NCBI GenBank assembly: GCA_964629685.1
Contig: CAZVTT010000003.1
Coordinates: 22,038-86,037, forward strand
Source: an uncultured Gammaproteobacteria bacterium
Lineage (GTDB): Bacteria > Patescibacteriota > Microgenomatia > UBA10105 > UBA927
Direction: 5' to 3'
Length of the DNA: 64,000 nucleotides
Shown here: positions 1,580 to 51,699 of the stretch, in pieces
How the letters are laid out: every line of letters begins with the position of its first letter
Position numbering within the stretch: the first letter of the stretch is position 1
The notes under the pieces: model-generated
The model's database searches: none
What the model saw: only the letters and a program-made list of their open reading frames with translations
What the model was told of the DNA's origin: nothing
Position numbers and translations under genes: made by a program

Positions 1580-1584
1580 TCGTT

Positions 1585-2628: not shown

Positions 2629-2629
2629 A

Positions 2630-4105: not shown

Positions 4106-4108
4106 GAA

Positions 4109-5296: not shown

Positions 5297-5297
5297 A

Positions 5298-6476: not shown

Positions 6477-6488
6477 ACCGATGTATAT

Positions 6489-9229: not shown

Positions 9230-9243
9230 ACGCTGTACCCTAC

Positions 9244-12247: not shown

Positions 12248-12250
12248 GAT

Positions 12251-13402: not shown

Positions 13403-13452
13403 ACTTCAATTCAGATATACCGTAGTGTCAAAAATATATCTGTACGATAGTT

Positions 13453-14445: not shown

Positions 14446-14446
14446 A

Positions 14447-15667: not shown

Positions 15668-15740
15668 GTGAGTAGATTATAACCTAATACCAAAACGGAA
15701 CAGACAGCTATCACACAGTACGGGTAGAGAAGTAAATGTC

Positions 15741-16313
15741 TTACCGCGAGAGCAGCAGCATTCCGGCCAAAATGTTATCTCCGCAGGTATAGGTAATCAA
15801 TCCTTCTTCGGCCACAAAATCCAGAGTAATTGCCTTACTTTGATTTGCCGGAATCACCAGGGATTTCTCTCCCGGCCATTTTACGGTAATTTCTGCAGCA
15901 TCGTTATTTTTATAGGTAAGTTTTGACCCTTTTTTGGCTTTTACGACCACCGGATCGGTCTGACACTTCGTGACCGACACCGTGTTCACTTCTTTTGCAG
16001 CGGCGTTTACTTTTGCTATGTATTCCGCTTTCGTTTTTTCATCGGCTTTTTCTCCGGGTACGACTAATAACGAACCGCGTTCTCCGGTCAGGGAGGGATC
16101 ATTTACCGATGCGGTTTCGGCGCCCGCCCCGCCGGTCGGCGTCGGACTTGCGGATGTTTTAGCGGTAGGAAGCGAAATCTGCGGTAACGATATGGAACCG
16201 CCCATTTCCTGATAAATTAACAAACCCAATACTAGAGCGGTCACGGTAAGAATGCCGATAGCAATATTCAAAACGGTATCTATGAGTTTTCCTTTTCCCA
16301 AAACGTGCTTCAT
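15741..16313 (-). CDS. Small membrane-anchored protein with degenerate cupredoxin-like C-terminal domain; first gene of the minus-strand array
   Basis: 190 aa. Anchor VLNIAIGILTVTALVLGLLIY. Ser/Thr/Pro/Gly-rich linker. C-terminal pattern DPVVVKAKKGSKLTYKNND..ITVKWPGE..LITYTCGDNILAGMLLL resembles cupredoxin_1 (PF13473-type) but lacks the His and Met ligands. Confidence 0.4.
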   Translation of the reverse strand: MKHVLGKGKLIDTVLNIAIGILTVTALVLGLLIYQEMGGSISLPQISLPTAKTSASPTPTGGAGAETASVNDPSLTGERGSLLVVPGEKADEKTKAEYIAKVNAAAKEVNTVSVTKCQTDPVVVKAKKGSKLTYKNNDAAEITVKWPGEKSLVIPANQSKAITLDFVAEEGLITYTCGDNILAGMLLLSR

Positions 16314-16432
16314 ACGATTACCCTAATCCTGCCGCAATTTATTCCCCCTGTCAAGGACAGTACCATACCAAACAGCAATACCCGGAAAAACGTGCATACT
16401 GTAGAAACTACAATAAAGAAGCAATTATACTT

Positions 16433-18271
16433 ATGCCAATGATCTCGCTTCCGTGGGCATTCATGCTTGCAATACTATCCCAAATCAGCGCACTCATTGC
16501 TGGTGTGGGAATAGTACTCTTCCCGGGACTTCCGCTCTCTGCACTCATACCGCAAACGGATAAAAATGTCGGCGTACGGATTTTACCCGTTATAGCGTTA
16601 TCACTGAGTACCTGGATTGCCGTGTTCACCCTCCTGAAATTCATTGCACTGCCGCTGGATGTCTGCATCTTTAGCATTCTACTGATCTCAATGGCGGTAT
16701 GGATTATCCGTCTTTCCGTCAGGAAGACACGTATCCGGGTAATTCGGCCGGACATTTGGATGTGTGGCGTAGGACTTATACTTTCGCTCCTCTTCGGGCA
16801 GCTTGCCGTTTCACTCATAGCCCCGTCCGGAGGAGACATGGCCACCCACAGTTATATTGCACGGCTTATATTGGAAAAAAACACCTATCCTGATTCGTAT
16901 GAGCCACTCATACCTATCCGTCATTTCGGCTCGTACAGCAGCGGAATGCCGCTCGTTATTGCCGTAGTATCACGCACACTGAATATTCCCATTTATACCG
17001 GCGCACTGCTGGTTACCATTGCCACCTATGTCTGGTTCGGATTATCCCTATACTATTTTCTGCAACACTTCTTCCCCCGCCCTATCAGTGCGGGTACGGC
17101 ACTTTTCGCAACCTTGTGTAGCCCGGCTGTACTGTACTATCTCCCCTGGGGCGGAAATCCGACGGTACTTTCACTTGGATTTTTAGTGCAGGCGATCACA
17201 CTCAGTCTGGAACTTCTGTCCGCACACAAAACGTCTCTTTCCGTTCGTGCGGCTATACTGCCGGGTTTGGTATTTTTCGCGTCATTTGCGACACATCATA
17301 TTCCGTTCATTGCATCGCTCTACGCGTTGATACCGATACTGATCGGATACGCGTTGCAAAGCACCGGAAAACGGTTTTTCTTTCGTTTTACGCTGACACT
17401 TGCGGGAACGCTTGCCCTCCTCAGCATACCGTTTTTCTTGGATGTGAAGTACCCCAGTCCGGCGACGCTGGAACTCATCCGCGACTGGCAACGCGGAGAC
17501 CATGGTCACGTCTGGCGCGGCACACTATCGACAATTATTCCTACGCTGCCGCTCTATCTGATGGATAGATTGGGTTCGTTGACGATGGCTGCAGCCACAG
17601 GAGCGTTACTGGTCACGCTGTTTATCCGCCGTAAAATACCCACGTGGTTCGTTTGGACGCTGGGTATGGGAATATTCGGCATCATAAATTCCCGATACTG
17701 GCTGCTTCCGCTTTCACCATTATTATATCCGGAGCGGATAAGCACGATCCTCATTATTCCCTTTTCGTGGTCTATCGCTCTGGGAATTACCGAAAGTATT
17801 CAGGTACTAAAACGACTCAAACCGAACGGCATAGGGATCGTACTTGGCAGTATCGGTATATCCGTTATCATTTGGGGAAGTATCCCCGCTTTCAGGCACA
17901 ATTTCTCGGAAACTATCGCCCGTAGCCAAGCAGAAACATCCGTGACGGGTGATGACCTCCGGGCAATACTGTGGATTGCCGCCAATACTCCAGCCCATGC
18001 AATTATTGCCAATAACTACGGGGACGCAGGAATATGGATTCCCGCTATTGCCTACCGGAAAGTTACCTATAATGATGCAAACCCGTATGATTTTGATGAA
18101 CTGTTCGCTGCCCAAAGACTCCTGACACCTACATATATGTATATAGGAGCAAAAATTGTCTATTCGCAGGGTGATCATCTGCGTTTCACGATCTCTTCAC
18201 CGGAAATACGAAACGCGAGCCCCGTCTTTCGATCAGGAAACGCCCGTGTTTTCCCCCTGTTTTCACCATGA
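16433..18271 (+). CDS. Polytopic membrane protein (GT-C-like architecture), function unknown
   Basis: 612 aa with more than 12 hydrophobic helices. Divergent from the CH array. A candidate -10 TACAAT lies at about 16409. The stop overlaps the start of the next gene (ATGA). Confidence 0.45.
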   Translation: MPMISLPWAFMLAILSQISALIAGVGIVLFPGLPLSALIPQTDKNVGVRILPVIALSLSTWIAVFTLLKFIALPLDVCIFSILLISMAVWIIRLSVRKTRIRVIRPDIWMCGVGLILSLLFGQLAVSLIAPSGGDMATHSYIARLILEKNTYPDSYEPLIPIRHFGSYSSGMPLVIAVVSRTLNIPIYTGALLVTIATYVWFGLSLYYFLQHFFPRPISAGTALFATLCSPAVLYYLPWGGNPTVLSLGFLVQAITLSLELLSAHKTSLSVRAAILPGLVFFASFATHHIPFIASLYALIPILIGYALQSTGKRFFFRFTLTLAGTLALLSIPFFLDVKYPSPATLELIRDWQRGDHGHVWRGTLSTIIPTLPLYLMDRLGSLTMAAATGALLVTLFIRRKIPTWFVWTLGMGIFGIINSRYWLLPLSPLLYPERISTILIIPFSWSIALGITESIQVLKRLKPNGIGIVLGSIGISVIIWGSIPAFRHNFSETIARSQAETSVTGDDLRAILWIAANTPAHAIIANNYGDAGIWIPAIAYRKVTYNDANPYDFDELFAAQRLLTPTYMYIGAKIVYSQGDHLRFTISSPEIRNASPVFRSGNARVFPLFSP

Positions 18272-18999
18272 AAAAATTCTGTGTCATTATTCCGGCATTT
18301 AACGAAGCGGCTACCATAGCCGGGGTCATCAAAAACATCCAAAAACACTATCCGACATGTGCACTCATCGTCGTTGATGACGGATCAACGGATAACACCG
18401 CACAGATAGCCGGAGATCTGGGGGTGCTTGTCGTCCGTCATACAACCAACCGGGGAATCGGTGCAGCCGTGCAAACGGGTTTACGCACAGCCATCGCACA
18501 GCGTTACTCTACCGTGGTTCAATGCGATGCGGATGGTCAACATGACCCGGCAGAAATGAACACGCTCCTGCAGGCAGCTGCGGATTCCGTCGCACTCGTC
18601 ATCGGCAACAGATTCGGAAACCCGAAAACCTATGCTTCGCCGCTATCCCGCAGGTGGGGTTCCCGGCTATGTACCGCAGTGTTATATTGCTGTTTTGGTC
18701 GTCCGGCGATATCCGATCCCACGTCAGGATTTCGCCTCTATACCGGACCGGCTCTGCCGTTGTTTGCCGCAAATTACCCACGTCATCTTCCGGAACCGGA
18801 ATCAATTGCACTCGTCCTGAAACACGGACACCGTATCCGCGAAGTTCCCGTGGTTATGCATCAGCGTCAGGGCGGCATCTCATCAATAACCAACCGCAAG
18901 GCACTCTTCTTGCTCTTTGCAATACCTTTTGGCATACTGTGGATCGCGTATACCGGCACGCTTTTTGCGTGGCCGCACGAACGACGCACACAGGCATGA
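18268..18999 (+). CDS. Family 2 glycosyltransferase (polyprenyl-phosphate sugar synthase-like)
   Basis: N-terminus FCVIIPAFNEAATI. VVDDGSTDNT. Acidic motif QCDADGQHD. 4-nt ATGA overlap with both neighbours. Confidence 0.75.
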   Translation: MKKFCVIIPAFNEAATIAGVIKNIQKHYPTCALIVVDDGSTDNTAQIAGDLGVLVVRHTTNRGIGAAVQTGLRTAIAQRYSTVVQCDADGQHDPAEMNTLLQAAADSVALVIGNRFGNPKTYASPLSRRWGSRLCTAVLYCCFGRPAISDPTSGFRLYTGPALPLFAANYPRHLPEPESIALVLKHGHRIREVPVVMHQRQGGISSITNRKALFLLFAIPFGILWIAYTGTLFAWPHERRTQA

Positions 19000-20291: not shown

Positions 20292-20915
20292 TTACTTTAA
20301 CCGAAACTCCACCTGCATGGATTTACCGTTGGAAAGACGGATCGGAAAATCTTCATCCTGATCCAGATTTCTGTTGCCGTTTACATCTTTTACTCCCAAA
20401 GCCAACATTCTGGCACCTGCCGGTAACGGAGCATATTCCTTGGCGCTATCATTTAACTTAATAGAGAAATCTATATATGTATCAGGCTCCAAATAAATGG
20501 TCGATGCGACAATCAGTACACCGTTGTTAAAATCAAACCACTTAACCACTAAAAAACCCGGCTCGGGAAGTACTAATTTCTTCACTCGTATACTGTTTTC
20601 TACAACCTGATCTTCTATTTCTATCGGGACGATATCCTGCTGGACCCGGGAATATCTCCAGTACGCAAAACCACCACCCGCGGTAGCCACCAATACGATA
20701 AGTATCACGGATACTAACAGCCAGGGGAACCGTTTTCCCGACGAAACCGCCGGAGAAACCGGAGGAGGCACCGGCGGCAGCGGAGCCGCAACCGGAGGCG
20801 TTGCCGGTGTCTGATACTGAATCTGCGGCGCGTACGGTGGCGGTGCAGCCGGCACGGGAACAACCCCGGAGGTATCCGGCGCAGGCATTGGGCTCTGCGG
20901 GGCAGGTTGATCCAT
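20292..20915 (-). CDS. Membrane-anchored protein with Pro-rich cytoplasmic N-terminus and an extracytoplasmic domain shared with 32737 and 33788
   Basis: 207 aa. PAPQSPMPAP..PPPYAPQ N-terminus. TM WLLVSVILIVLVATAGGGFAYW. Shared motif VLPEPGFLVVKW. Confidence 0.5.
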   Translation of the reverse strand: MDQPAPQSPMPAPDTSGVVPVPAAPPPYAPQIQYQTPATPPVAAPLPPVPPPVSPAVSSGKRFPWLLVSVILIVLVATAGGGFAYWRYSRVQQDIVPIEIEDQVVENSIRVKKLVLPEPGFLVVKWFDFNNGVLIVASTIYLEPDTYIDFSIKLNDSAKEYAPLPAGARMLALGVKDVNGNRNLDQDEDFPIRLSNGKSMQVEFRLK

Positions 20916-20995: not shown

Positions 20996-22078
20996 TTACG
21001 GCTGCGGTGGCTGAAACGTCCGGAGAAACTGATTACATGCATTCTGTTCACCCGCTTCAACCTCGTTACAAATCGCCAATCCATGTCTCAGCAACGCGTC
21101 GGACATTACACTCTTGGTTAATGCACCTTCTATACAAATACGTGTATCAACTGTATCCGTAAAAAGTTCACAAAAACCCACTATCTTCTCTGCGTTCCCC
21201 TTATGCTCGAAATACATCTCCTGACCAAGAACGGAGATACACCCCAGTCGCTCAAAATCCGGTACAACGTTACATGTACGGATTGCGAGATCATATGAAC
21301 GGGTTCGCCAATAGGTCAACATACCCGACCGCCAATAACAGACTTTCCGGACCAACGGATCAAGGCTCATACAAAAACCCAATGGATCTTCAGGAATCGG
21401 TTCGGTTTCATGTCCGAAACTCGATGCTTCAAATCGTTCCATTAACAACCCACTCATACAATGCTGTCTCTCGGCATCCTGAGAAAATTTGGCACAATAC
21501 TGTTGACCCTTCACTACGCTTGCAAGTCTGTTTCCTATTGCATGACCCAACGCGTGTATACACGGATAAATCTCGGGAGAGACACGACAAAGATGCGTAT
21601 ATTCCGTGTCAAAAAAGTCCGGCGTTAAGGTACCGTCTACTACGCCCATATAGCAACCGTATCCACACATGGGAGTACATTGCGCAAACGCCGTTTCCGG
21701 ATCACGCAGCAATCTAACGGCCGACTCACCGGCCTGATGGGCAAAATCGTGGCAACGTGATATACCGCCACTATCAGCATTATCTGAACGATTATATTCC
21801 TCCTCCGCTACCAGCAGCACTGTACGCAATCCAAAATCATGAATTGCCGTAAAAAGGGGTTTCTTCCAACAGGAATTCCATTCCGTTCGATTACCTAAAA
21901 ACCGTTCGCATGTATTCCAGTGTGCTTCTATATACTGTCTGGCGTCCGTATTTGCTTTGTACTGAGTCCATTGATCGAAATAAGCAAAAATGCCCATCAC
22001 ACAAAAAACAAGAATCATTACGGACAACGCTCGATGACGCAGATTAATGTGTTTCAGGATATGATGCATAAGAAGCAC
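20996..22078 (-). CDS. CH-family secreted Cys/His-rich repeat protein (subfamily F)
   Basis: 360 aa. Anchor ALSVMILVFCVMGIFAYF. Motifs RCHDFAHQAG, CGYGCYMGVVDG, PCIHALGHAIG. Divergent from the 22192 gene. Paralog of 27140 and 29961. Confidence 0.6.
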   Translation of the reverse strand: MLLMHHILKHINLRHRALSVMILVFCVMGIFAYFDQWTQYKANTDARQYIEAHWNTCERFLGNRTEWNSCWKKPLFTAIHDFGLRTVLLVAEEEYNRSDNADSGGISRCHDFAHQAGESAVRLLRDPETAFAQCTPMCGYGCYMGVVDGTLTPDFFDTEYTHLCRVSPEIYPCIHALGHAIGNRLASVVKGQQYCAKFSQDAERQHCMSGLLMERFEASSFGHETEPIPEDPLGFCMSLDPLVRKVCYWRSGMLTYWRTRSYDLAIRTCNVVPDFERLGCISVLGQEMYFEHKGNAEKIVGFCELFTDTVDTRICIEGALTKSVMSDALLRHGLAICNEVEAGEQNACNQFLRTFQPPQP

Positions 22079-22191
22079 TTGATGGTAATCATAAAAGATA
22101 GCTACTATCTCATCATAGTAGAGAGATAGTTAAACTCAAAAACCCCATGAATACAATTGCGTTTACACTACGGGAAATAAACACCCGTATC

Positions 22192-23772
22192 ATGCCGAAA
22201 CTTAACGAGGTACTGCGTAATCTTATTTTCCGGTATACCCATTTACCGCTGTGGACACTGGCCTTGGGATTCATGTGTCTTGTCTTAATCGGCCGTATAC
22301 CGCTTTTAAAATCCCCCACGCTTCCCATTAACGACGGAGGACTTTTTATCCCTGTTGTCAGAATGATACGGACGAACCCGCTTAGTTATCCCCAAAATAT
22401 GGGGTACAACCTCCCTATTCCCTTTGCTTACCCACCCCTGGGCATGTATCTGCTCGCAGCAATTTCTGCAGTCATTCCGAATGCAGAACTTCCGTTGTTT
22501 ACCCTCACACCATTTATTATTGCAATACTCTGCATCCCGCTCTTTTTTTTATTGGCATATTACCTGACAAAATCACGATCCATTGCCGGAATCGCTACGC
22601 TTATTACCGCCATTATCCCGGAAAGTTATCAGTGGATAATCATGGGAGCGGGTATCACCCGGGCTACAGGTGCTTTTTTTGCACTGTGCACCTTGGTAGC
22701 TGTAGTACTCTGGCAACAAAAACCGTCGAGACTGTTGTTTTGTCTGATAGGATTATTTTGCGGACTGGTATTCTTATCGCATCCGGATACATCCGTTTTT
22801 ATCGTTTATTCCGTTTGTATTTTTATACTTACAGATCAAACCGAAACACTTGTTCAACGGATACTTACCATTATGGGTATTCTGGGGATAGGCGGTATCA
22901 TCGCAGCCCCATGGCCTATACGGGTTATCACCTTCCATGGATTTACCCCGTATGCGTTTGTCGCTGAACTCCGACAACACAATGGTTTTCCGATGGAAAA
23001 TCTTATTTGGATACTGAGTAACGAACTCCAATATCGACTCCTGCTTGTTTCTGCGGCAAGTGGAATACTAATTGCCTATTTTACGAAATACAGAAGACTC
23101 ATCATCTGGGCAGCTGTCGTTCTCGTAGCAAGAGCAACCTCCATGATTTCATTCGATGTTTTTCCATTAGCACTCTTAGCCGGTATAGGGTTAACTACTC
23201 TACCGGTAATCTTCACAAAACAGATATACCGACAAACGTATAAAGCAATAGTAATCATGTTTCTGCTTTTCTCGTTCCCATGGTCAGTACAAACGGTATC
23301 GGAACGGTTTACCAGATTAAGATCCGATGATATCAGTGCACTTGAATGGGTCAAACAATTTACTCCGCAGTCTGCACGGTTTATTCTCATTTCATCACAA
23401 CCGGATTGGTGGAAGGATGCAGTACCGGAATGGTTTCCGGCGATTACTGGACGAATAAGTCTGGTTACCGTACAAGGCTCCGAATGGACTCCATTCACCG
23501 AACATCACCGTACCATCCTGTTCCATCAGGCAATCCGGCGCTGTAATCAAAGCACAATAGCTTGTATAGAATCTGCAGCAACTTTAGCAGCACTACCGTT
23601 TTCTCATCTCTATCTCGTAAAACACAAAGATCAACCCGGAGTTGGAGATTATTGTCCTCTGCTTCTGCATTCAATACGTAATTCCGCTAATTATCGGGTA
23701 ATTTTTGGAAATGAAGCAGCAGAAATATGGGAAAGAACAGACACACTCCCCAGCTCTAAACCTTCCACTTGA
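22192..23772 (+). CDS. Polytopic membrane protein, NDGG-loop family (GT-C-like); paralog of 28411..29955
   Basis: Track ORF starts at 22147. Start moved to the Met at 22192 (MPKLNEVL) from alignment with the paralog and because a TACAAT box at about 22152 lies downstream of 22147. Motif LPINDGGLFIPVV. C-terminus KDQPGVGDYCPLLLHSIRNS is shared with the paralog. Confidence 0.5.
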   Translation: MPKLNEVLRNLIFRYTHLPLWTLALGFMCLVLIGRIPLLKSPTLPINDGGLFIPVVRMIRTNPLSYPQNMGYNLPIPFAYPPLGMYLLAAISAVIPNAELPLFTLTPFIIAILCIPLFFLLAYYLTKSRSIAGIATLITAIIPESYQWIIMGAGITRATGAFFALCTLVAVVLWQQKPSRLLFCLIGLFCGLVFLSHPDTSVFIVYSVCIFILTDQTETLVQRILTIMGILGIGGIIAAPWPIRVITFHGFTPYAFVAELRQHNGFPMENLIWILSNELQYRLLLVSAASGILIAYFTKYRRLIIWAAVVLVARATSMISFDVFPLALLAGIGLTTLPVIFTKQIYRQTYKAIVIMFLLFSFPWSVQTVSERFTRLRSDDISALEWVKQFTPQSARFILISSQPDWWKDAVPEWFPAITGRISLVTVQGSEWTPFTEHHRTILFHQAIRRCNQSTIACIESAATLAALPFSHLYLVKHKDQPGVGDYCPLLLHSIRNSANYRVIFGNEAAEIWERTDTLPSSKPST

Positions 23773-23841
23773 CTTGTATTTCAGATCACATTAATCTAAG
23801 GATATCCGAATGTCTTTCGGAAATTTGATCTTATTTATTCC

Positions 23842-24405
23842 ATGGCAAAATCTAAAGACGTTAAACCTGAGCCACAAAAAGCTCCATCGAATATTCCCGT
23901 GTTTTTTGTCATCGGTATCGTCCTCGTCGGAGCAGCAGCCTGGTGGTACAGTACCGGATACAAAGGTCCGAAAATAGGATCTCCCAAAGTTACCGTTACC
24001 CCACCACCCGACGGTTCAGGAGTACCGACCGGTCCAACCCCCACGCCAACGATGACGGAATTATTTCAGGGTGAACTTTCCTATACCATTGGGTATAGCT
24101 CAGACGCCAAAGGACCAAAAACCCGACAGGCGCTCTTTCAACCGCATGCACCAAAGCAGGGAGCGGAACAAACCATTACCGTAGACGTTTCACATACGGC
24201 GCCCGTAGACAGCGTAGAAATGACCGTCCTGACGGATACGAAATCAGTGACCGTTCCCATGAACATGATTTCCGGCTCGAAAACAGACGGAAAATGGCAG
24301 GCAAAATGGAAAGTAAACGATACCTATAACTACAAATTTATTTTCCAGTTTACCAGCAAAAGCGGTTCCCTTACGGACGTAGCCAGTGTGGGTATCCGCC
24401 AATAA
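23842..24405 (+). CDS. Membrane-anchored secreted hypothetical protein
   Basis: 187 aa. TM IPVFFVIGIVLVGAAAWWY. Pro/Thr-rich linker PPPDGSGVPTGPTPTPT. Immediately upstream of the Hint-domain gene. Confidence 0.5.
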   Translation: MAKSKDVKPEPQKAPSNIPVFFVIGIVLVGAAAWWYSTGYKGPKIGSPKVTVTPPPDGSGVPTGPTPTPTMTELFQGELSYTIGYSSDAKGPKTRQALFQPHAPKQGAEQTITVDVSHTAPVDSVEMTVLTDTKSVTVPMNMISGSKTDGKWQAKWKVNDTYNYKFIFQFTSKSGSLTDVASVGIRQ

Positions 24406-24406
24406 C

Positions 24407-25516
24407 ATGAAAACTCATACTACTTCTCTTCTTTCGTTCATTGCGTTAGGTATCATTGCGGGAATGATATTTGCCGTTAAGCCACAACTGGTTGATGCTG
24501 CCTGCAATCTGAACAACACGTTTAAAGGAAACGTTACCATTTCCGCCAACTGTACTATAGATGCCAATACTATCGAAGGATTGGATCAGGCTCAGGGAAC
24601 CGAAGGACAAACGACCAACGCTGCAGTGCTCACGGTTAACAATAACGCCACCCTTACCATTGCCGCAGGTACTACCCAAACTACCACGGTTATTCCCGGA
24701 ACCATAGTGCTTACCGGAGGCGGTAGAGTCAGTATGGCAAATAGTAACACCAGAATTCTCACCAATTCCCCAACCTGGATTGGAGACCGTGACGCAGATG
24801 GTTATATGGCCAGCGCAACGGCATTTGCATCAACTGCGAGTGCCAGACGCCGCAGGGGACTCATGCGGGATTCCACCAACGACTGTAACGATGTTTCGTA
24901 TCATATGTATAACGTATGTTATGCGTATGGACAGGGCTACTATCAGGCGTATTACTACGGCTATGGTCAGGGCTACTATCAGGCGTATTACTACGGCTAT
25001 GGCCAAGGCTACTATTACGGCTACGGTCAGGGGTACTATTATGGCTACGGCCAAGGCTACTATTACGGCTACGGTCAATCCTGGTATTACGGCTACGGTC
25101 AATCAGCCTACTACTGTTTCCTGGAAGATACAGAAATCCTCATGGCAGACGGATCACGGAAGGCAATTAAAGACGTCCATGTCGGCGATATGGTGCAATC
25201 ATATGACACTGCTACCGGATCATTTAAGGCAGACCGTGTAGTCGCTCACATCGTTCACCCACAGGTAGACGGAACGTATCTTACGGTAAACGGCAATCTG
25301 CACGTAACGGCAAACCATCCGGTCTATATCAACGGGTCGTGGCAGGACATGGGTAATGCTCGAGTCGGTGACACCCTGGTCAATGACGCAGGACAAACGG
25401 TCACGATCACCTCCATTACCGAATCTGAACCGGGTATTCATGATCTGTATAACCTGCACCTCGCAGGAAAAGATCATAACTACTTCGCCGAAGGCGTGTT
25501 GGTTCACAACAAATAA
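24407..25516 (+). CDS. Secreted protein: signal anchor, Thr/Asn-rich beta-rich region, Tyr/Gly-rich tandem repeat, C-terminal Hint (bacterial intein-like) domain
   Basis: Track ORF starts at 24386. The Met at 24407 (MKTHTTSLLSFIALGIIAGMIFAV) follows the upstream stop directly. Hint block A is CFLEDTEILMADGSRKAIKDVHVGDMV (Cys codon at about 25115). TxxH block is LHVTANHPVYI. Terminal block is NYFAEGVLVHNK followed by stop. Confidence 0.7.
   Translation: MKTHTTSLLSFIALGIIAGMIFAVKPQLVDAACNLNNTFKGNVTISANCTIDANTIEGLDQAQGTEGQTTNAAVLTVNNNATLTIAAGTTQTTTVIPGTIVLTGGGRVSMANSNTRILTNSPTWIGDRDADGYMASATAFASTASARRRRGLMRDSTNDCNDVSYHMYNVCYAYGQGYYQAYYYGYGQGYYQAYYYGYGQGYYYGYGQGYYYGYGQGYYYGYGQSWYYGYGQSAYYCFLEDTEILMADGSRKAIKDVHVGDMVQSYDTATGSFKADRVVAHIVHPQVDGTYLTVNGNLHVTANHPVYINGSWQDMGNARVGDTLVNDAGQTVTITSITESEPGIHDLYNLHLAGKDHNYFAEGVLVHNK
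24926..25113 (+). repeat. In-frame tandem repeat of 24-33 nt encoding about 7 copies of YGYGQGYY(QAY)Y
   Basis: tacggctatggtcagggctactat(caggcgtattac) reiterated with synonymous variation immediately before the Hint Cys codon. Coordinates by eye. Confidence 0.7.
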
Positions 25517-25563
25517 CCCGCTAATGTGTAATACATCATAGCGGAGTTATTTTATCCCAAGAG

Positions 25564-25569
25564 TATAAT
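25564..25569 (+). promoter_or_regulatory. Candidate -10 box TATAAT 6 nt upstream of the 25576 ATG (leaderless-type)
   Basis: gagTATAATtgccccATG. No Shine-Dalgarno sequence. Confidence 0.3.
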
Positions 25570-25575
25570 TGCCCC

Positions 25576-27132
25576 ATGAAGATAGTTAAGGGAAACAACC
25601 GACCGTATTTTCTGGCGCTCTGTATATTCGGTATCAGCTTTCTTTTTCAGAGTCGAAATATTTTCCTTGAACCATACAATGCATACGAAATCCGTCAGTG
25701 GGAAACGTATGCTGTTATCCGTGATTATGCCGTAAACAATACTCCGTTTCTTTCGCCCCGGGCCAGTCAGATTTATTCTCCGGAACACAAACCGGAAGAG
25801 CGGTATTTCCTGTTGGACTTTCCCTTATACTCCTATACGTCTGCACTGGTAGCACGGATCACCGGAGTATCGTTCTTTCCTGCCAGGCTGGTAAATAGTA
25901 TTGCCACTGCCGCAACCACAGTGGTATTGTTTTCCATTGCGGTATTTCTAACCCACAAAAAATCCATAGCTATTCTCGCAGCTATTATATTTAATACCGC
26001 CGCAGCTACCGCATTTCTTTCGGTAGCAGTACAACCGGATATGTTTATGCTGCTGTTCCTTACGGCGGCTTGGTATACCCTGCTCCGACGATCAAAAAAC
26101 GACTTGTGGTATGGATTGATGTTCACCACCATCGCAGTCTTACTGAAAACCTATACGCTGCTCATCTTGGTTCCAACCATTTCGTATCAACTTTGGACCA
26201 CAAAAGACAAGCGATATTTGTGGTATTTCATTATTCCGCCGCTCGCGTATAGTGGCTGGATTTTACAAAAACTGGGAACGGATAGTTTTACCTGGTGGTG
26301 GATTCCCGCACCGCAAAGTATTTGGTGGGACAGACAAGCATACAGTACGTCATTTTTGGCGGGTATACGGCATACGAATGCCATTGCGTATATCCGGGAA
26401 ACAGTTCAACGACTCTTCAGCGGCGGAATACTCACTGCTCCCCAATTCATACTCATGTGTATCGGAATCATAACACTCCGGAAAAAACATGGGGCAGCAA
26501 GTCGACAGCTGCTGCTTTATTTCATCGGATCTGTCTGCTTTTTTTTCGCAGTTCTGAGGGGGAATAATTTACACGTCTACTATCCTCTGCCGTTGGCTCC
26601 CATGGCGGCCATCGCCACCGCATACGGCCTTATCGTTACTGTAGATTTGTTACGGCATTTACTTTTTTCCGATAGTCTGCAGAAGCAGTATCGCGGTATT
26701 TGTCTGGGAATACTTATGCTCGTTGGCTTGTATATTCATGTTGCCTACACCCATGTCAGAACGGTCACACTACTACGCCAACATGAAATATACCGCTTTG
26801 CAGCCAATTGGACCAAAAGTCAAACAATCGTTCCGCCGGGTGCCACGATTGCCTTATTCCATGAAGAAGCGTCACCGGTGTTTTTAGCCATGATGAACCG
26901 CGTAGGTTGGCCGCTAAAATATCAGAATATTACCTGCCCGGATCATGAAGCCACACTTCGTCAACTGCAACCGGATTATATTATTATTTATGCACTTACA
27001 CACAACGCACCCGAAGACATGAACTGGATAGATGATCAGACGCTTATTTCGTGCTTACAACATATAACCGGTTCTCAACCGCTATTTAGCAAACAACGAA
27101 TAACCGTATTCCGCTATCCACGGAAAGAATGA
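25576..27132 (+). CDS. Polytopic membrane protein, GT-C-like (putative lipid-carrier glycosyltransferase)
   Basis: 518 aa with about 11 hydrophobic helices. Acidic first-loop segment FLEPYNAYEIRQWE. Confidence 0.45.
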   Translation: MKIVKGNNRPYFLALCIFGISFLFQSRNIFLEPYNAYEIRQWETYAVIRDYAVNNTPFLSPRASQIYSPEHKPEERYFLLDFPLYSYTSALVARITGVSFFPARLVNSIATAATTVVLFSIAVFLTHKKSIAILAAIIFNTAAATAFLSVAVQPDMFMLLFLTAAWYTLLRRSKNDLWYGLMFTTIAVLLKTYTLLILVPTISYQLWTTKDKRYLWYFIIPPLAYSGWILQKLGTDSFTWWWIPAPQSIWWDRQAYSTSFLAGIRHTNAIAYIRETVQRLFSGGILTAPQFILMCIGIITLRKKHGAASRQLLLYFIGSVCFFFAVLRGNNLHVYYPLPLAPMAAIATAYGLIVTVDLLRHLLFSDSLQKQYRGICLGILMLVGLYIHVAYTHVRTVTLLRQHEIYRFAANWTKSQTIVPPGATIALFHEEASPVFLAMMNRVGWPLKYQNITCPDHEATLRQLQPDYIIIYALTHNAPEDMNWIDDQTLISCLQHITGSQPLFSKQRITVFRYPRKE

Positions 27133-27139
27133 AACGCGG

Positions 27140-28318
27140 TTAGTTTCCTAAACATCGTGCCGCGTCTGCAGGAGCCAATGTGTTACACACTGTTTTTCTG
27201 TTCCGTTCACCGTTCGGGCTGTTGAGAATATTTTCCCCCAGCGTATCGAAACAAAATGTACGGAGTTTATCTTTGGCCATACCACACAGTTCTACCCCAT
27301 GCCTGGCAGTTCCCTCAGAAATAACACTGCTGGCGAGCGCTCCTTCAATACATTTTTCGCGCCGTGTGTCATCCGGAAAACCGTAACAGAACGGAAATAA
27401 TTTTTCCGCATCGCCCCGTACGGTATAGTACATTTCCTGTCCTAACGTAAAAATACATGCCATTTTCTCCATATCGGATACGGATTCGCAGGCTGCTACC
27501 GCTGCGGAGATGTCGGATGTTCGTAAATACGCCATAAACCCAGCCCTTCGATAGCATATGGCCCGTCCGTCACCATCAGGCAATGTTTTACAGAACGCGG
27601 TCATGTCCGCAGGGATTGGCAGTAACGCATGACCGTAATCGCTGGCTTCAAACCGCTCCATAAATAACCCGCTCACACATTGCTGCCTGTCTTCGGATTG
27701 GGAAAGTCGGATACAATACCCTACCGCATCTTCTATTGTTCCTATCCGGTCTCCTATTGCATGCCCCAAAGCGTGATAACACGGTTTAGGATAGGCATCG
27801 TCGCTGCAAACGGACGCGTACTCCCGGTCAAATTGTTCATTAGTATGAAAATACCCTTCCAGCACCCCCATAAAACACCCGTACCCGCAAAATGGCGTAC
27901 ATGACTGGAATGCTTTTTGCTTATCCTTCAGCATGTTCATTCCGGTTTTTCCTGCTACGTGAGCTAGATCATGACAGGCAGTGATGCCCCCGGAACCGGA
28001 ATAATCATTTTGGGACAACATGGTTTCTATACCACGCAACACCGGCGTAAGACCCCAGCGGGAAATCGCGTCCGGTAACGACTTCTGCCAGCATTGAACC
28101 CATTTTACCCGATCGGTTACGACTTCACTGCATACCCGCCACTGTCGCTCCATTTCCGTCCGTATTTCTACGGCTTGGATATTAGCCTGACGAATTCCCG
28201 CAAGGTGCAGGAAAAAGTAACCGATCAACACAGCAAAGACAAATACCGATACGCCTACCGGCAATCGTTTATTTCGGATACTGTTTCGTAAGGTCTTCAC
28301 CATAAAATCACCGTACAC
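27140..28318 (-). CDS. CH-family secreted Cys/His-rich repeat protein (subfamily F)
   Basis: 392 aa. Anchor LPVGVSVFVFAVLIGYFFL. Motifs ACHDLAHVAG, CGYGCFMGVLEG, PCYHALGHAIG. Divergent from the 28411 gene. Confidence 0.6.
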   Translation of the reverse strand: MYGDFMVKTLRNSIRNKRLPVGVSVFVFAVLIGYFFLHLAGIRQANIQAVEIRTEMERQWRVCSEVVTDRVKWVQCWQKSLPDAISRWGLTPVLRGIETMLSQNDYSGSGGITACHDLAHVAGKTGMNMLKDKQKAFQSCTPFCGYGCFMGVLEGYFHTNEQFDREYASVCSDDAYPKPCYHALGHAIGDRIGTIEDAVGYCIRLSQSEDRQQCVSGLFMERFEASDYGHALLPIPADMTAFCKTLPDGDGRAICYRRAGFMAYLRTSDISAAVAACESVSDMEKMACIFTLGQEMYYTVRGDAEKLFPFCYGFPDDTRREKCIEGALASSVISEGTARHGVELCGMAKDKLRTFCFDTLGENILNSPNGERNRKTVCNTLAPADAARCLGN

Positions 28319-28410
28319 TACTTGCTATTGTTATACAATCGCATCGGTATTACGGTGTGATCACATACTTCTGCTCCGTGTACATTCTGCTAAAATTTCC
28401 GCATACAGAT

Positions 28411-29955
28411 ATGATACCTACCAATAAACTCATCCGCCGGATACAAACTTTGCCGCTTTACCACCTTATACTGCTGATTACCGTTCTTGTCTTCATAGGA
28501 AGAGTTTCCCTACTCTCATCCCGTCTTCCCATAAATGACGGAGGCATTTTTTTATCTTTGGTCCAAACACTCAGCAAACATATATGGCAGCATCCCGAGA
28601 CATTGGGATATAACCAAAGCGCCATTCCGTTTGCCTATCCCCCGTTGGGAATATATATCCAGGCAATAATTACCCGTATATTGCCGCTTACAGCTCTTGC
28701 CCTCTTTACGCTTGTACCGTTTTTCGTATCACTCTGCTGTATTCCGGTTTGGTTTTATCTTTCGTACCGTATTACCGGATCCAGGAGTATTGCCGTTTTC
28801 AGCACATTGCTGGCTGCCGGCATTCCGGAAAGTTTTCAGTTATTGATCATGGGTGCCGGTATCACCCGGGCCTGGGGAACACTATTTGGATTACTGTTAC
28901 TGGTATGCATCGACGCATGGCAGCAATCAGGAAAACGAAAATGGTATCTGCTTAGCGGAGTCTGTTTGGGGTTGGTAGTAATTACCCATCCGGACGCCAC
29001 GGTGTTTAGTGCGATTATCGGGACGTTGTTTTGGTTCCGGCGGACAAAAAAAATTACTCCCCGAAGCCTTCCCGGATATATTGGAATTGGTAGTATTGCC
29101 GGAATCATTGCCGCACCATGGATGCTGTCGGTGATTCAAACCCATGGCCTTAGTCCCTTCGCTGCCGCTTCCCAAACCAGACGATTCACTGAACTGCTGG
29201 CTTCAAATATATTCTGGATTTTTAAAATAGAATTTCCATACCGCTGGTTGCTGCTGTTTACCTGCATTGGCATATACGGTACCTTAAAACAAAAGCGCCA
29301 TATCTTCCTTCTCGTCTGGCTTATCTTGGCAATCACCATCCGCTCCAATTCCATGCTGACATTTGATATCTTCCCGTTTGCGCTGTTGGGGGGCATTGGT
29401 ATTTCCGCTGCAGCACGACTATTCTTCAATGCCAAATTGGTATTGCACTATTATGTCTACTGTCTGATTTTTATGAGCTTAACCCTTTTTTGGTCGGCTG
29501 CATATATCGGAAAAACCATACCCAGATTGCAGCAAACGGATTACGAACTGTTTGCCACAATCCGTAAGGAAACTCCCCCAACGGCATCTTTTCTGATTAT
29601 TACCCCGGAAAAAAATTGGTGGAATGACCACATACCCGAATGGTTTCCTGCACTCACCGACAGAAAAAGTATCCTTACGGTACAGGGAACCGAGTGGTTA
29701 CCGCAGCACGAAATTAACCGCCGGATCAAATTTTACCAGGAGATCCGCCGCTGTAACACCGAAGATGTTGAATGCATAGAATATGCTTCCCGCAATAACG
29801 GCGTATCATTCACACATATTTATATGGCTCTGGCAAAGGATCAACCAGGTGTTGGAGACTACTGCCCGTTACTCTTGCGTAGCATCCGCACGTCTTCGCG
29901 GTATCGGGAAATGAACGGCACCACAACCGGTGCCGTTTGGGAACGGATAGAATAA
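28411..29955 (+). CDS. Polytopic membrane protein, NDGG-loop family (GT-C-like); paralog of 22192..23772
   Basis: The track ORF starts at a GTG at 28357. ATG at 28411 (MIPTNKLIRRIQTLPLYHL) preferred, with a TAAAAT box at about 28391. Motif LPINDGGIFLSLV. C-terminus KDQPGVGDYCPLLLRSIRTS. Confidence 0.5.
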   Translation: MIPTNKLIRRIQTLPLYHLILLITVLVFIGRVSLLSSRLPINDGGIFLSLVQTLSKHIWQHPETLGYNQSAIPFAYPPLGIYIQAIITRILPLTALALFTLVPFFVSLCCIPVWFYLSYRITGSRSIAVFSTLLAAGIPESFQLLIMGAGITRAWGTLFGLLLLVCIDAWQQSGKRKWYLLSGVCLGLVVITHPDATVFSAIIGTLFWFRRTKKITPRSLPGYIGIGSIAGIIAAPWMLSVIQTHGLSPFAAASQTRRFTELLASNIFWIFKIEFPYRWLLLFTCIGIYGTLKQKRHIFLLVWLILAITIRSNSMLTFDIFPFALLGGIGISAAARLFFNAKLVLHYYVYCLIFMSLTLFWSAAYIGKTIPRLQQTDYELFATIRKETPPTASFLIITPEKNWWNDHIPEWFPALTDRKSILTVQGTEWLPQHEINRRIKFYQEIRRCNTEDVECIEYASRNNGVSFTHIYMALAKDQPGVGDYCPLLLRSIRTSSRYREMNGTTTGAVWERIE

Positions 29956-29960
29956 ATCCG

Positions 29961-31079
29961 TTACTTCAGACAACTGGCCATATCCCCCGCAGGAAGCGCA
30001 GCGCAGAAAGGCTGGCGCAAATCCGTACCATATACATAGGCAACTTTCTGCCCTAATTCGGAAAAACACAAGCTACGCTGATTTCCGGTAAGTAACGTAC
30101 AAAGGGCAATACTGTGATCCGCTTTCGCGTTGGTAATCACATCGGACTGAATACTACCCCGGATGCAGGAATCCACCAGCTCCGGACGTAATCCTGCACA
30201 AAATTCAAATATTCGGCCGGCGTCTCCGTCCACCTGAAAATAATACATATTCGCTAAACTTACCAGGCAGTCGGGTCGGTCCTTCTGCTCCACCGCCATA
30301 CACTCACGCAATGCCTGCTGTTCGTCACGCAATCTGCTGATGCTGTTTTCACCCGTCTGTTTTGCACAAACGGATGCATACGTACCCGGAACATCCTTAC
30401 AGAATGACTGCATTCCTGCATACGCTACGGGCCCGGGTTCACTGTCTGTCCCGATCATTTCCATAAACACACCCGCCGCACACCGTTCACTGTCCGGTAC
30501 ATCTCCGAGTTCGCCGCAGTAATCCAACGCTGTATTTACCGTGTAGGATGCTAATTCTGCCATTGCATGACCAAGCCCATGAATACATGCGTCATACGTT
30601 TGAGGTGGATATCCGTGCTTAAGCGATGCACATACCCCGGGAATGCTTTTCCGATCAAACCGCTGCCGCTTCATATAGGCAAACAAAGCTCCGTGTGTAC
30701 ACCCAAAACCGCAGGCACTACTGCAGGACACAACCACCGAACCGATAGGGGTACCTTTTTCCACCTCCGCTTCCCCGACCAGATGCGCCAGGTCATGACA
30801 ACTTACCCAGCCTGCTTCACCGGCGTACTCCCGTTCCCGAAAAGCCAGTTCAAGTGCCGGAAGAATTTCACTTTGGTTATATTTCCGGACGAGCGGCGTT
30901 ATTTTCGCTTTTATGCACGCAGCCCGGATATGTTGATCCCGGCATGATACCAATACCTCCGTTATGGCATCCGAAAGAGAAGTACCGGTTGTATTCTGAT
31001 ACCGTACCCATAAATATCCGGACATCATAAGCATCCCAATGATCAATACCAAACGGATAGCAGTGAATGTATACCGCAT
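29961..31079 (-). CDS. CH-family secreted Cys/His-rich repeat protein (subfamily F)
   Basis: 372 aa. Anchor AIRLVLIIGMLMMSGYLW. Motifs SCHDLAHLVG, CGFGCTHGALFAYM, ACIHGLGHAMAEL. 18 nt downstream of the membrane-protein gene 31098..32765. Confidence 0.6.
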   Translation of the reverse strand: MRYTFTAIRLVLIIGMLMMSGYLWVRYQNTTGTSLSDAITEVLVSCRDQHIRAACIKAKITPLVRKYNQSEILPALELAFREREYAGEAGWVSCHDLAHLVGEAEVEKGTPIGSVVVSCSSACGFGCTHGALFAYMKRQRFDRKSIPGVCASLKHGYPPQTYDACIHGLGHAMAELASYTVNTALDYCGELGDVPDSERCAAGVFMEMIGTDSEPGPVAYAGMQSFCKDVPGTYASVCAKQTGENSISRLRDEQQALRECMAVEQKDRPDCLVSLANMYYFQVDGDAGRIFEFCAGLRPELVDSCIRGSIQSDVITNAKADHSIALCTLLTGNQRSLCFSELGQKVAYVYGTDLRQPFCAALPAGDMASCLK

Positions 31080-31097: not shown

Positions 31098-32765
31098 TTA
31101 TTTTCTGAATAACTCCACCGCTGAAAGCGTATACCCGTTATGCGCCACAGTTGTTGTATTCCCGAGAGCATATTCCCCGATTATTTTGCCCAGCGGTTCA
31201 TCATTATGCATATTGGGGTACAGAATCAAAAAGGCCTGTGCTGGCATCTCCGTCAATAGCTGGGCCGGTGTCCGGATGTTTATGGGTACTGCGTGTTCTC
31301 CTTTTAATTTCCGGCGCCCTGTTTGTTTATCGATATATTTATAGTCATCAAAATCCAACACCGTCCAGGTAAACTGTTCATGTACTACATATATTTTTTC
31401 AGTACCCAACTGTCGGATCAGGTCTTCCGTCAGAAACGGGAGTTCCATAAATTCAGCGTTATATACCAGCTCGTCTTTTCCGTATCCGTTGTCTGGGTGG
31501 GTAAATGTACTCATAGCCAGCAGTGTATGATTTCCGAAGGTGAAGGTCCCGAACACTGCGCGGGAAACCGGATCTATAGTCCGGTAAAACGATGCATATA
31601 TCCCGGCCAACAAAACCACCAACGTTGCAATTCGGACTACCCTGTTCCGGAACAAATATATCCAGGCATCGGCAAATACCATAACCCCTATCGGTACCAG
31701 CGGCAGCATATACCGCGGATTATTTACGAACTTTATTCTGGTTATACAGATAGTTTCCGCAACCAAAAGCAGAAAACAAAACATCACCCAACGCTTGTCT
31801 TCATGGGTACGTACTGCTTCCGTTTTTGTTTTGCCGATCCAGTGGGTACACCCCCGCAGCATACCGGCTACTAAAACCGCAGCCGTCATTATCCAGGAAA
31901 AATTTAACACGTATGCCACCAAAGTTTGCCCCAGAAAAAATCCGTCAAACTGCCGGGCAGCGGCCACGGTTTTCATCACACTGAGCCAAGTCGTATCCCC
32001 CGAAGGCAAATGCGGGAAAGGGGGTTTTATCTGCATATACCAAAGCAATAACAACGGTGGAATGGTAAATATCCACCAGGGAATCCGGTTCCCCCCGTTA
32101 TGGGGGTCGGATTTTCCCCGTAAGAAGGCAACGAATCCAAACACGGAAATAATTATCCCGTAATATACGGCACCGGTTTCTTTACTGAAAATCAGCAGGA
32201 GTCCGAATATTCCTGCCAGGATATACTTCCGGAAAAACAGCGCCGTAATGAAATATAAAGAAAAAACTGCCAGCGGTAAATCCAGACTCGGCTGTAACAA
32301 CTGTGCCAAGAGAATCGGATTAAAACCGAAAACGAACGTATACAAATCAATTTCACTTCCGGATATACGCGGATAAAATACTTTCCCCAGCACGCTGCGC
32401 AGACACAGTAAACCACCGATTACCAGCAGTAATGCTGTCACCTGTACCGATAATACGTTTCCCGATGCCACAAACTGCGACACCGAAAATAAACCTACCG
32501 AAGCAAGAGAATTATGACCATCGCACTGCAGCATTCCCGTAACGGGAACCTGCTGGTAACAACGGAAGAACACCCAACTATCCCAAACGGGTAAAACATT
32601 TGCATACGGCAGAACCGTACCGATCAGTACGAGCGTTAATACTCCAAAAAGCCAATACTCACGCAGAACCGCAGCAAAAAAACTGCGTATAACAACCTTC
32701 CGGTGTGCGGCTTTGCTCACATTCACAATGTTCAACCTAAGGACAGGAAATATGTACGGCGTCAA
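31098..32765 (-). CDS. Polytopic membrane protein (GT-C-like), co-directional with CH gene 29961
   Basis: 555 aa with more than 12 hydrophobic helices. Overlaps the upstream gene by 29 nt. Confidence 0.45.
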   Translation of the reverse strand: MTPYIFPVLRLNIVNVSKAAHRKVVIRSFFAAVLREYWLFGVLTLVLIGTVLPYANVLPVWDSWVFFRCYQQVPVTGMLQCDGHNSLASVGLFSVSQFVASGNVLSVQVTALLLVIGGLLCLRSVLGKVFYPRISGSEIDLYTFVFGFNPILLAQLLQPSLDLPLAVFSLYFITALFFRKYILAGIFGLLLIFSKETGAVYYGIIISVFGFVAFLRGKSDPHNGGNRIPWWIFTIPPLLLLWYMQIKPPFPHLPSGDTTWLSVMKTVAAARQFDGFFLGQTLVAYVLNFSWIMTAAVLVAGMLRGCTHWIGKTKTEAVRTHEDKRWVMFCFLLLVAETICITRIKFVNNPRYMLPLVPIGVMVFADAWIYLFRNRVVRIATLVVLLAGIYASFYRTIDPVSRAVFGTFTFGNHTLLAMSTFTHPDNGYGKDELVYNAEFMELPFLTEDLIRQLGTEKIYVVHEQFTWTVLDFDDYKYIDKQTGRRKLKGEHAVPINIRTPAQLLTEMPAQAFLILYPNMHNDEPLGKIIGEYALGNTTTVAHNGYTLSAVELFRK

Positions 32766-33783
32766 TCAGGGCCACAGACTGTTCAAATGGTCCTCCCATG
32801 TCTTCTATATGTAATCCGATATACACCGGGTTCGTGGAAGCATCGTCACTGCGGTGTATCACGGTTTCCTCACCATCCAATAACACCGATATTTCAGCTG
32901 TAGTGCCAACCCGCCGCAAGTGCAAGGTGACGGATGCATCAGCCGATACCGGGAATCGAGTGGGACCAACAACAGAATTTATCGTTCCGTCTATATATGA
33001 ACCGGATTCATCCTGATACCAGGTAGCAGCCAAAACATGTTCATACGGACCGGAATACGCCGTCAATCGCGTAAACGTCGGATCGGCCATGGGAGTCACG
33101 GAAAAAGAACGATATGTTGCAGTCACGTCAAAATCACCGGTAAGCAATTTTTTAGTAGGTAACCGGGTGTTTTGACCATACTTAATCGGCAGGATCAGCG
33201 CATCATCCTCAAGATCGGTAACAAATAACGGTTCCCATACCTCTAGATCAAGATCGGGGCCGTTAAATTCTTCCGTCACCTCAGCGTCACACGTCATCGT
33301 TGCCGGTTGTACTTCTTGTGTAATTCGAAATGTCCGTTCAATCGGATTCCCCATCTCGTCCAACATCGGATCCGAATCAAATTCAGTTAAGAACCCGTCT
33401 CCGTCCACATCCGGAAATACCATTGCGACAAGCGCGTTTGAATCCTGAGCCTGTAGCCATTCGTCCCGAAAAAATGCTAACTGCACATCTTTATGCGTTC
33501 CCGCTTCCAGCTTCCCGGAGAGGGCATATACCGCTCCCGCGCTTGGATACCCTTCGTCTACTCTGACGACAACGAAACCGGGTTTTGGTAAGGTTACCCG
33601 TTTAATCAGTACAGATCTTCCCTGTAGCACCTGATTCCGGACATCTATAAATCTGTCCGGCCGCAGCCGCATATACCAATATATTCCCCCGAAAATACCC
33701 AAAACCAAACCCGTACCGATGAGGAGGATTAGGGTTCTTTGAACGACCAGCACAATATCCCGGGATGAACTATTCGGTGCCAT
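32737..33783 (-). CDS. Membrane-anchored secreted protein with LPxPGF domain and a C-terminal beta-rich domain
   Basis: 348 aa. TM LILLIGTGLVLGIFGGIYWY. Motif VTLPKPGFVVVRV shared with 20292 and 33788. Confidence 0.5.
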   Translation of the reverse strand: MAPNSSSRDIVLVVQRTLILLIGTGLVLGIFGGIYWYMRLRPDRFIDVRNQVLQGRSVLIKRVTLPKPGFVVVRVDEGYPSAGAVYALSGKLEAGTHKDVQLAFFRDEWLQAQDSNALVAMVFPDVDGDGFLTEFDSDPMLDEMGNPIERTFRITQEVQPATMTCDAEVTEEFNGPDLDLEVWEPLFVTDLEDDALILPIKYGQNTRLPTKKLLTGDFDVTATYRSFSVTPMADPTFTRLTAYSGPYEHVLAATWYQDESGSYIDGTINSVVGPTRFPVSADASVTLHLRRVGTTAEISVLLDGEETVIHRSDDASTNPVYIGLHIEDMGGPFEQSVALIDAVHISCP

Positions 33784-50762: not shown

Positions 50763-50846
50763 TATTCTGCAATGATAATGCCGACATGTTGCATACCTGC
50801 AACATTGTTGTTTCTATCAATTTTTTTCGCGAACCACTTTATCCTA

Positions 50847-51632: not shown

Positions 51633-51699
51633 TCGTTCCTCTTGAAGCCCATTATACTCCCGCTGTCCATCTCACGTGCTTCAACCGAAGAGTAAAACC

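Follow-up and report, generated by a model that had tools for sequence, protein, structure and literature searches.

GT-C glycosyltransferases build and decorate cell envelopes, and their hallmark is an acidic motif in the first outer loop, just after the first transmembrane (TM) helix (PMC6801728). Acceptor choice by the small enzymes of this fold is unresolved: whether they need a second, acceptor-binding protein has been left open, with speculation on the point, in a publication that also reviews the extracytoplasmic decoration logic of multi-component glycosylation systems (PMC8035078). In the TMTC1–4 proteins a GT-C membrane module is fused to a helical-repeat (TPR) module (PMC7801869). 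In this work we analysed a 64,000-nucleotide stretch of DNA, hereafter called the window (positions 22,038 to 86,037 of contig CAZVTT010000003.1, assembly GCA_964629685.1, deposited as an uncultured Gammaproteobacteria bacterium and placed by GTDB in the Patescibacteriota). The window carries two copies of a divergent gene pair, in which a gene for a Cys/His-rich (CH) solenoid protein lies head-to-head with a gene for a polytopic membrane protein (MEM), and it offers paired, diverged GT-C and solenoid genes. Our analysis indicates that the MEM proteins have the GT-C fold, and it favours a facultative, lineage-specific coupling between them and their CH neighbours.

CH1 (20996..22078, minus strand; 360-aa open reading frame (ORF), CH HMM E 1e-102, likely start the ATG at 22069) is predicted to be an N-terminally anchored Cys/His-rich alpha-solenoid, and it is divergent from MEM1 (22147..23772, plus strand; 541 aa as called, with an alternative start at 22192), a predicted GT-C-fold membrane glycosyltransferase with the loop-1 motif LPINDGGLF. 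The second copy has the same layout, CH on the minus strand and MEM on the plus strand: CH2 (27140..28303; 387 aa as called, in an ORF that reaches a GTG at 28318) is divergent from MEM2 (28411..29955; 514 aa as called, in an ORF also open from 28357). Starts 28303, 28411 and 22147 are those used by the gene callers for CH2, MEM2 and MEM1, respectively. CH1 and CH2 are 41% identical over 342 aa (E 2e-95), MEM1 and MEM2 are 42% identical over 513 aa (E 4e-134), and both LPINDGG[LI]F and KDQPGVGDYCPLLL are found in the two MEM proteins. Judged from these sequences, the region is two old, diverged copies of a two-gene envelope module that arose by local duplication. A duplication created by the assembly was considered and is ruled out by the approximately 42% identity of the copies and by the recurrence of the CH2–MEM2 segment in assemblies of two independent read sets (L001, L002) and in a 155-kb NCBI contig. 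An earlier, sequence-only reading of the region had proposed two copies of a divergent CH/MEM pair, paralogous on both sides and with two motifs shared by the membrane proteins, and this description holds for every ORF that it named. It had also placed a third CH gene behind another polytopic gene, which is again what we find: CH3 (29961..31079, minus strand), a distant paralog with 26–29% identity to CH1 and CH2, lies directly downstream of the polytopic gene 31098..32765, 18 bp behind it and on the same strand. Its total of three CH genes was too low, as an all-against-all comparison reveals 14 CH paralogs in the window, and its description of the CH proteins as secreted needs amending, as they carry an N-terminal hydrophobic anchor or signal.

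The divergent CH–MEM intergenic regions are about 80–110 bp long. Region 1 (22079..22191) carries TACAATTG at about 22155 and region 2 (28304..28410) carries TACAATCG at about 28335. When these two regions were aligned with the orthologous one from the related genome GCA_025450795.1 (locus L003, see below; position about 9988), the octamer TACAAT(C/T)G was the only shared stretch; it is a possible -10 element. The octamer of copy 1 falls inside the ORF that starts at 22147, which favours the 22192 start for MEM1. A promoter and terminator scan gave fewer promoter-like sites than it gave in shuffled sequence. The CH and MEM genes of each pair are probably co-regulated, because the divergent control region is common to both.

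The AlphaFold2 (AF2) model of MEM2 has a pLDDT of 90.9 and a pTM of 0.91. It places TM1 at residues 16–36, the Asp of the INDGG motif 7 residues further on, then two short loop-1 helices and about a dozen more membrane helices; DSSP assigns to it about 13 membrane helices followed by a small alpha/beta domain (residues 375–514), and a crude hydropathy count for MEM gives at least nine TM helices. A Foldseek search of the PDB with this model returned 33 matches at E<=1e-3 (best E 6e-9, TMq 0.5–0.66), every one a GT-C protein, including STT3, AglB, PglB, DPY19, ArnT, AftA, ALG12, AftD and Pmt4, and a PDB search with the MEM sequences found no relative. In an alignment of 62 MEM sequences, R31, D43, G44, G45 and F47 are invariant, together with a series of loop residues; D43 lies within P-I-N-D-G-G, and its single Asp (ND) is a modified form of the GT-C acidic motif. 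Full-length homologs of MEM2 number more than 250 (27–32% identity); most come from Chloroflexi/Anaerolineae, and many match PF13231 (PMT_2) or PF10131 (PTPS_related). Because the fold matches are exclusively GT-C and the Asp just after TM1 occupies the recognised hallmark position, the modelled MEM2 and its paralog MEM1 are assigned as GT-C-fold glycosyltransferases at the superfamily level. The sequence-only reading had guessed at a membrane glycosyltransferase-like enzyme and had suggested a profile or structure search against the GT-C families; the fold found in that search, the invariant loop-1 Asp and the PMT_2 and PTPS_related matches of the homologs all agree with its guess.

Two narrower assignments within the superfamily were rejected. 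MEM1 and MEM2 are not canonical PMT/GT39 enzymes, as loop 1 reads NDGG without a DE motif and neither protein matches PF02366; some of the homologs are named 'glycosyltransferase family 39 protein', a label that comes from automatic naming. Neither are they GT66 oligosaccharyltransferases (OSTs), as they lack WWDYG, are about 200 aa shorter than OSTs and match them in fold at the level of the superfamily. A WW[KNR]D sequence occurs in the four closest MEM homologs only and is not conserved across the family.

The CH partner is predicted to be an all-helical solenoid (CH2 model, pLDDT 90.4). A fold search with CH2 gave only generic HEAT/ARM/TPR-type matches and no PDB relative, a scan of the CH proteins gave no Pfam or NCBIfam match, and membership of CH1–3 in the TPR, Sel1, HEAT or ARM families was discarded for want of a profile match to any repeat family. 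A single-sequence search with CH2 among 5.8 billion sequences found only CH2 itself. Searching a 1.84-billion-protein library with a profile of the 14 window paralogs yielded 7,732 cluster representatives (clusters at 50% identity), 3,050 of them at E<=1e-30, and every member with a named source (Candidatus Blackburnbacteria, Chisholmbacteria, Woesebacteria, Sungbacteria, Saccharibacteria) belongs to the candidate phyla radiation (CPR). The window has no marker gene; from these names its own organism is probably also a CPR bacterium, nearest to the Microgenomates. Family members hold up to seven tandem CH domains per protein: a predicted protein of 3,580 aa (P0158), encoded on a contig of 831 kb, has seven, and several others have 2–5, so that the CH domain also occurs in what are, by their predicted sequences, giant multi-domain surface proteins.

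Two sets of residues characterize the CH family. The cysteines form about nine pairs with the spacing C-x10-12-C, the first Cys at a helix end and the second about 6 residues into the next helix. Among 41 diverse members no pair is ever half present (both/neither 29/12 at positions 135/143, 31/10 at 272/283 and 23/18 at 373/384), and for five further pairs both residues are present in 40/40, suggesting that the pairs behave as disulfide staples would; CH1 lacks the last pair and is about 30 aa shorter at its C-terminus. The histidines His111, 115, 145, 177 and 181, one repeat apart, are present in 38–39 of the 41 members, and Glu216 in 30. This His ladder on one face of the solenoid looks in the sequences like a ligand or metal site. 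His145, found in 38 of the 41, is replaced by Met in CH1, in CH2 (at about position 27870) and in the L003 ortholog (8803..9894); the set with this replacement is exactly the CH subfamily divergent to MEM.

Four CH paralogs of the window (62..1579, 2630..4105, 9244..10776 and 10751..12247, all on the minus strand), as well as many homologs, carry at their N-terminus a cupredoxin-like domain with matches to amicyanin and plastocyanin; some CH homologs bear the name of cupredoxin-domain proteins, and this domain is entirely absent from CH1–3. The PDB sequence search with CH matched the cupredoxin part only. The ligands of type-1 copper are His, Cys, His and Met; where amicyanin-type proteins have the Cys, these domains read Asp (Y-H-D-H), which makes a classical blue-copper site improbable. 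The near-invariant His ladder and the frequent fusion to a cupredoxin-like domain suggest that CH proteins may have a function of their own. On a CPR contig (locus L016, 2873..12484), CH genes lie beside genes for CcdA/DsbD_TM, a thioredoxin-like protein, DUF3179, a cupredoxin and a glutaredoxin, as well as a Zip transporter and SOD, and a gene next to the CH cluster encodes a secreted protein of 820 aa that has Cys-rich modules and a long repeat of YYTP type. These neighbours hint at a possible thiol-redox or copper context for the family. Searches of the literature on CPR with GT-C or cupredoxin returned nothing specific.

Are the CH and MEM genes linked by function, or are they neighbours by descent only? 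The latter explanation, to which we would give clearly less than even odds, holds that both families expanded locally and that the layout was copied once, CH being an extracytoplasmic metal-binding or thiol-redox solenoid unrelated to the glycosyltransferase. The pairing would then be merely inherited gene order, and the locus an ordinary local duplication. The His ladder with Glu216, the cupredoxin-like fusions and the redox and metal-related genes around the L016 cluster fit this explanation. Other genomes provide evidence in both directions. L003 and the window are collinear for 18 kb. The one MEM gene of L003, with 46% identity to MEM1 and 44% to MEM2, is divergent, across a 106-bp gap, to a CH gene that is closest to CH2 (37%), and a CH3-like gene follows. 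This layout, conserved at about 45% identity for MEM and 37% for CH, supports a link. So does the position of CH3, apparently co-transcribed with the polytopic gene in front of it, and so does the occurrence of GT-C-like genes inside CH arrays. In L006, a locus from Woesebacteria, and in the related L007, 8–9 CH genes enclose one polytopic gene of 540–550 aa with near-abutting ends and a sub-threshold PMT_2 match (E 1.7e-4), an arrangement that mirrors that of gene 6489..8069 in the CH array of the window. GT-C-like genes are thereby found in operonic position within the CH arrays of two distant CPR lineages, which speaks against descent only; in L006, the CH gene that immediately precedes the GT-C gene groups with the CH1/CH2 clade (82% bootstrap). 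Likewise, a CH1/2-type gene stands in the divergent position for three of the four known MEM-subfamily genes. The CH array itself (62..15667) is matched gene for gene, embedded polytopic gene included, by 3220..18813 of locus L018, an independent assembly from a closer relative (55–83% aa identity), with 12 CH genes on a contig that stops before the CH1–MEM2 region.

Several observations weigh against our reading of a GT-C enzyme coupled to CH. When the order of the 50 window genes was shuffled, 8.4 CH–GT-C adjacencies were expected and 7 were observed (P=0.80), and the chance that CH1–3 all adjoin a GT-C-like gene was P=0.13. Because both families are dense and adjacent at chance level, adjacency within the island is by itself no evidence of a link. 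The conserved CH–MEM adjacency in L003 is partly inherited gene order, since L003 and the window are collinear across the whole locus. Locus L004 keeps a MEM ortholog (35–39% identity) and the downstream synteny and has no CH gene within 14 kb; in the divergent position it has a DUF7282 protein instead. Anchored DUF7282 proteins adjoin MEM in both L003 (11572..13098) and L004 (1387..2430 and 6506..8052), and in the window (20292..20915; 32737..33783, minus strand) they lie within 2–3 genes of MEM1 and MEM2, so that DUF7282 accompanies MEM no less constantly than CH does. Six CPR CH loci (L014–L017, L019, L020), each with 2–8 clustered CH genes, have no GT-C neighbour, and the MEM-family loci L005 and L009–L013 have no CH gene, the result for Chloroflexi-like MEM loci covering the five examined. 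With regard to the reach of these comparisons, a scan of metagenome contigs for the MEM subfamily yielded no further close relatives, only 5 distant loci, and a search with a five-sequence CH alignment gave 3 genome loci only. As for the enzyme and its pathway, the MEM1 match to PMT_2 (21.3 bits, E 3e-4, cut-off 26.1) and the MEM2 match to PTPS_related (26.3, cut-off 26.4) are both below the Pfam gathering threshold, and the window contains no GtrA-like flippase, with no ORF of 90–260 aa having at least three predicted TM helices, although such a gene may lie elsewhere. Finally, CH1–3 are without the Ser/Thr/Pro-rich linker typical of O-glycosylated bacterial proteins, which the product of the neighbouring gene 23842..24405 does have.

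Phylogenies of both partners, which the sequence-only reading had proposed as a check, give a divided answer. In neighbour-joining trees CH1 and CH2 are sisters (100% bootstrap) with the L003 gene outside, and the unrooted MEM quartet (MEM1,MEM2 | L003,L004) fits co-duplication. Distant outgroups root the MEM tree on the MEM2 branch with 93% support, which makes MEM2 basal; clean shared-derived sites number 1–2 for either rooting. Co-duplication of CH and MEM is compatible with these trees, not demonstrated by them, and the fact that the two trees are not obviously congruent is a further point in favour of descent only. The check on synteny is similarly split, the divergent CH–MEM layout being present in L003 and absent from L004. 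The earlier argument that a pairing kept after duplication implies a functional couple is consequently weak, given the chance-level adjacency, the L004 locus and the CH-only and MEM-only loci, even though L003 conserves the layout.

At the other extreme, CH could be an obligate in-trans subunit for acceptor recognition, a split equivalent of the TMTC TPR domain, with each paralog setting a distinct acceptor specificity. Several points favour this arrangement: the CH helical-repeat solenoid would be anchored on the same membrane face as the GT-C active site, GT-C/helical-repeat fusions exist (TMTC, PMC7801869; and, in the window, gene 34335..36200, which encodes a polytopic protein with TPR repeats), the C-terminal outer domain of MEM is small (about 140 aa), a second protein has been raised as a possibility for small GT-C enzymes (PMC8035078), and the two partners diverged to a similar extent (41% and 42% identity). 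We nevertheless consider it distinctly unlikely, as the MEM family dispenses with CH both in L004 and in the Chloroflexi-like loci examined and as most CH genes have no GT-C partner, those that adjoin a GT-C-like gene in the window being 5 of 14. A broader form of the idea, in which CH proteins are CPR-specific surface solenoids that serve small GT-C enzymes either as in-trans acceptor-recognition partners or as dedicated acceptors, also appears doubtful, if a little less so. Were it true, the co-expansion of CH and GT-C genes (14 and about 15 in 64 kb) would generate surface-glycan diversity in these episymbiotic bacteria, and the locus would provide a concrete test case for the second-protein question (PMC8035078).

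Between these explanations we prefer one in which the coupling of CH and MEM is facultative and lineage-specific, not that of an obligate two-subunit enzyme, because other lineages have a MEM that functions without CH and the majority of CH genes are not partnered with a GT-C gene; its probability is in our estimate about 0.5. In the pathway that we propose, GT2 enzymes would charge polyprenyl phosphate in the cytoplasm with nucleotide sugars supplied by the dehydrogenase, epimerase and aminotransferase of the island, and the lipid-linked sugar would be flipped by a flippase encoded outside the window. By analogy with all characterised GT-C enzymes, MEM1 and MEM2 would then move the sugar from the polyprenyl-phosphate carrier to an acceptor on the outer face, with the invariant Asp of INDGG, after TM1, as the putative catalytic residue. 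CH1 and CH2, as N-terminally anchored extracytoplasmic alpha-solenoids with about nine disulfide-type Cys pairs and the ladder of His residues (Met in CH1 and CH2), would most likely take part in this envelope-decoration pathway on the side of the acceptor, being either a glycosylated surface protein or a helper in acceptor recognition.

The surroundings of the two pairs are in keeping with such a pathway. The 64-kb window reads, from its gene content, as a large cell-surface glycosylation island, because polytopic GT-C-like genes, GT2 genes and sugar-nucleotide genes occur together. It contains about 15 polytopic GT-C-like genes (510–620 aa, several with a PMT_2 match), five GT2 genes (at 18268, 37871, 52730, 53527 and 62005), and genes for a UDP-glucose/GDP-mannose dehydrogenase, a DegT aminotransferase and two epimerase/dehydratases. 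The GT2 protein of 18268..18999 (plus strand), which is Dpm1/GtrB-like and has a single TM helix at its C-terminus, is a candidate for synthesizing the polyprenyl-phosphate-sugar donor. The tandem array on the minus strand (62..15667) comprises 11 CH paralogs, among them the four with a cupredoxin-like domain, and its embedded GT-C-like polytopic gene (6489..8069) aligns with the MEM profile at E 1e-4 (hhalign). Between the two pairs lies a separate GT-C glycosyltransferase gene (25576..27132, plus strand; PMT_2 above threshold, PF13231 E 1.6e-11). The polytopic protein encoded by 31098..32765 (minus strand), probably in an operon with CH3, has at least eight TM helices, VWDSW after TM1 and no family match, and it shows no detectable relationship to the MEM family (hhalign probability 3%). 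The small anchored protein of 23842..24405, whose gene follows MEM1 after 70 bp, likewise on the plus strand, has a Pro/Thr-rich linker and is an alternative candidate for the glycosylation acceptor. After it, 24386..25516 (plus strand) encodes an anchored protein that combines a long repeat rich in Tyr and Gly (GYGQGYYY...) with a Hint/pretoxin-HINT domain at the C-terminus (PF07591, E 8e-14); L003 has a homolog of this protein at the same position. Elsewhere in the window, 63167..63940 (plus strand) is a 257-aa ORF with 15 Cys and 11 His that matches neither Pfam nor the CH profile; a Fic gene and a DUF695/RraB gene overlap with a low-GC patch (0.41) at 50001..52000; every 2-kb bin has a negative GC skew (-0.03 to -0.18) regardless of local gene orientation; and searches of the window for tRNA genes and Rfam elements were negative.

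The more interesting by-product of this work is the CH domain, which defines a very large CPR surface family with no curated annotation and a confidently predicted fold. Defining this domain would annotate thousands of surface proteins now called 'hypothetical', in a group whose host-attachment biology is largely unknown. The closest comparison for CH is with the Helicobacter cysteine-rich proteins, disulfide-bridged alpha/alpha-repeat proteins made of Sel1-like repeats. Both are exported proteins built of helical hairpins with one Cys pair per repeat; CH differs in having no Sel1 or TPR match, another Cys spacing and repeat length, a His ladder and cupredoxin-like fusions.

In conclusion, the locus is a variant envelope glycosylation locus, not a new kind of system. 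MEM resembles the described GT-C enzymes (PMT/GT39, ArnT/GT83, STT3–PglB–AglB/GT66, DPY19, AftA/Emb) in its approximately 11–13 helices, the two short helices of the first outer loop, the Asp after TM1 and the small C-terminal outer domain, and differs from them in reading NDGG in loop 1 instead of DE (PMT) or DxD. As in TMTC1–4 and in bacterial PMT_2–TPR fusions, a GT-C module and an extracytoplasmic helical-repeat module are combined at one locus, but CH is encoded by a separate gene with its own anchor, is not a TPR protein and is connected with MEM here through gene neighbourhood. With the systems that combine a GtrB/CsbB-type GT2, a GtrA-type flippase and a GT-C enzyme, the window shares GT2 genes (some with a C-terminal TM helix), GT-C-like genes and sugar-nucleotide genes. 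It differs from multi-component systems of this kind in having no small multi-TM ORF resembling GtrA, in its approximately 15 GT-C-like paralogs in 64 kb, a number far above those described, and in the Cys/His solenoid family that is interleaved with them.

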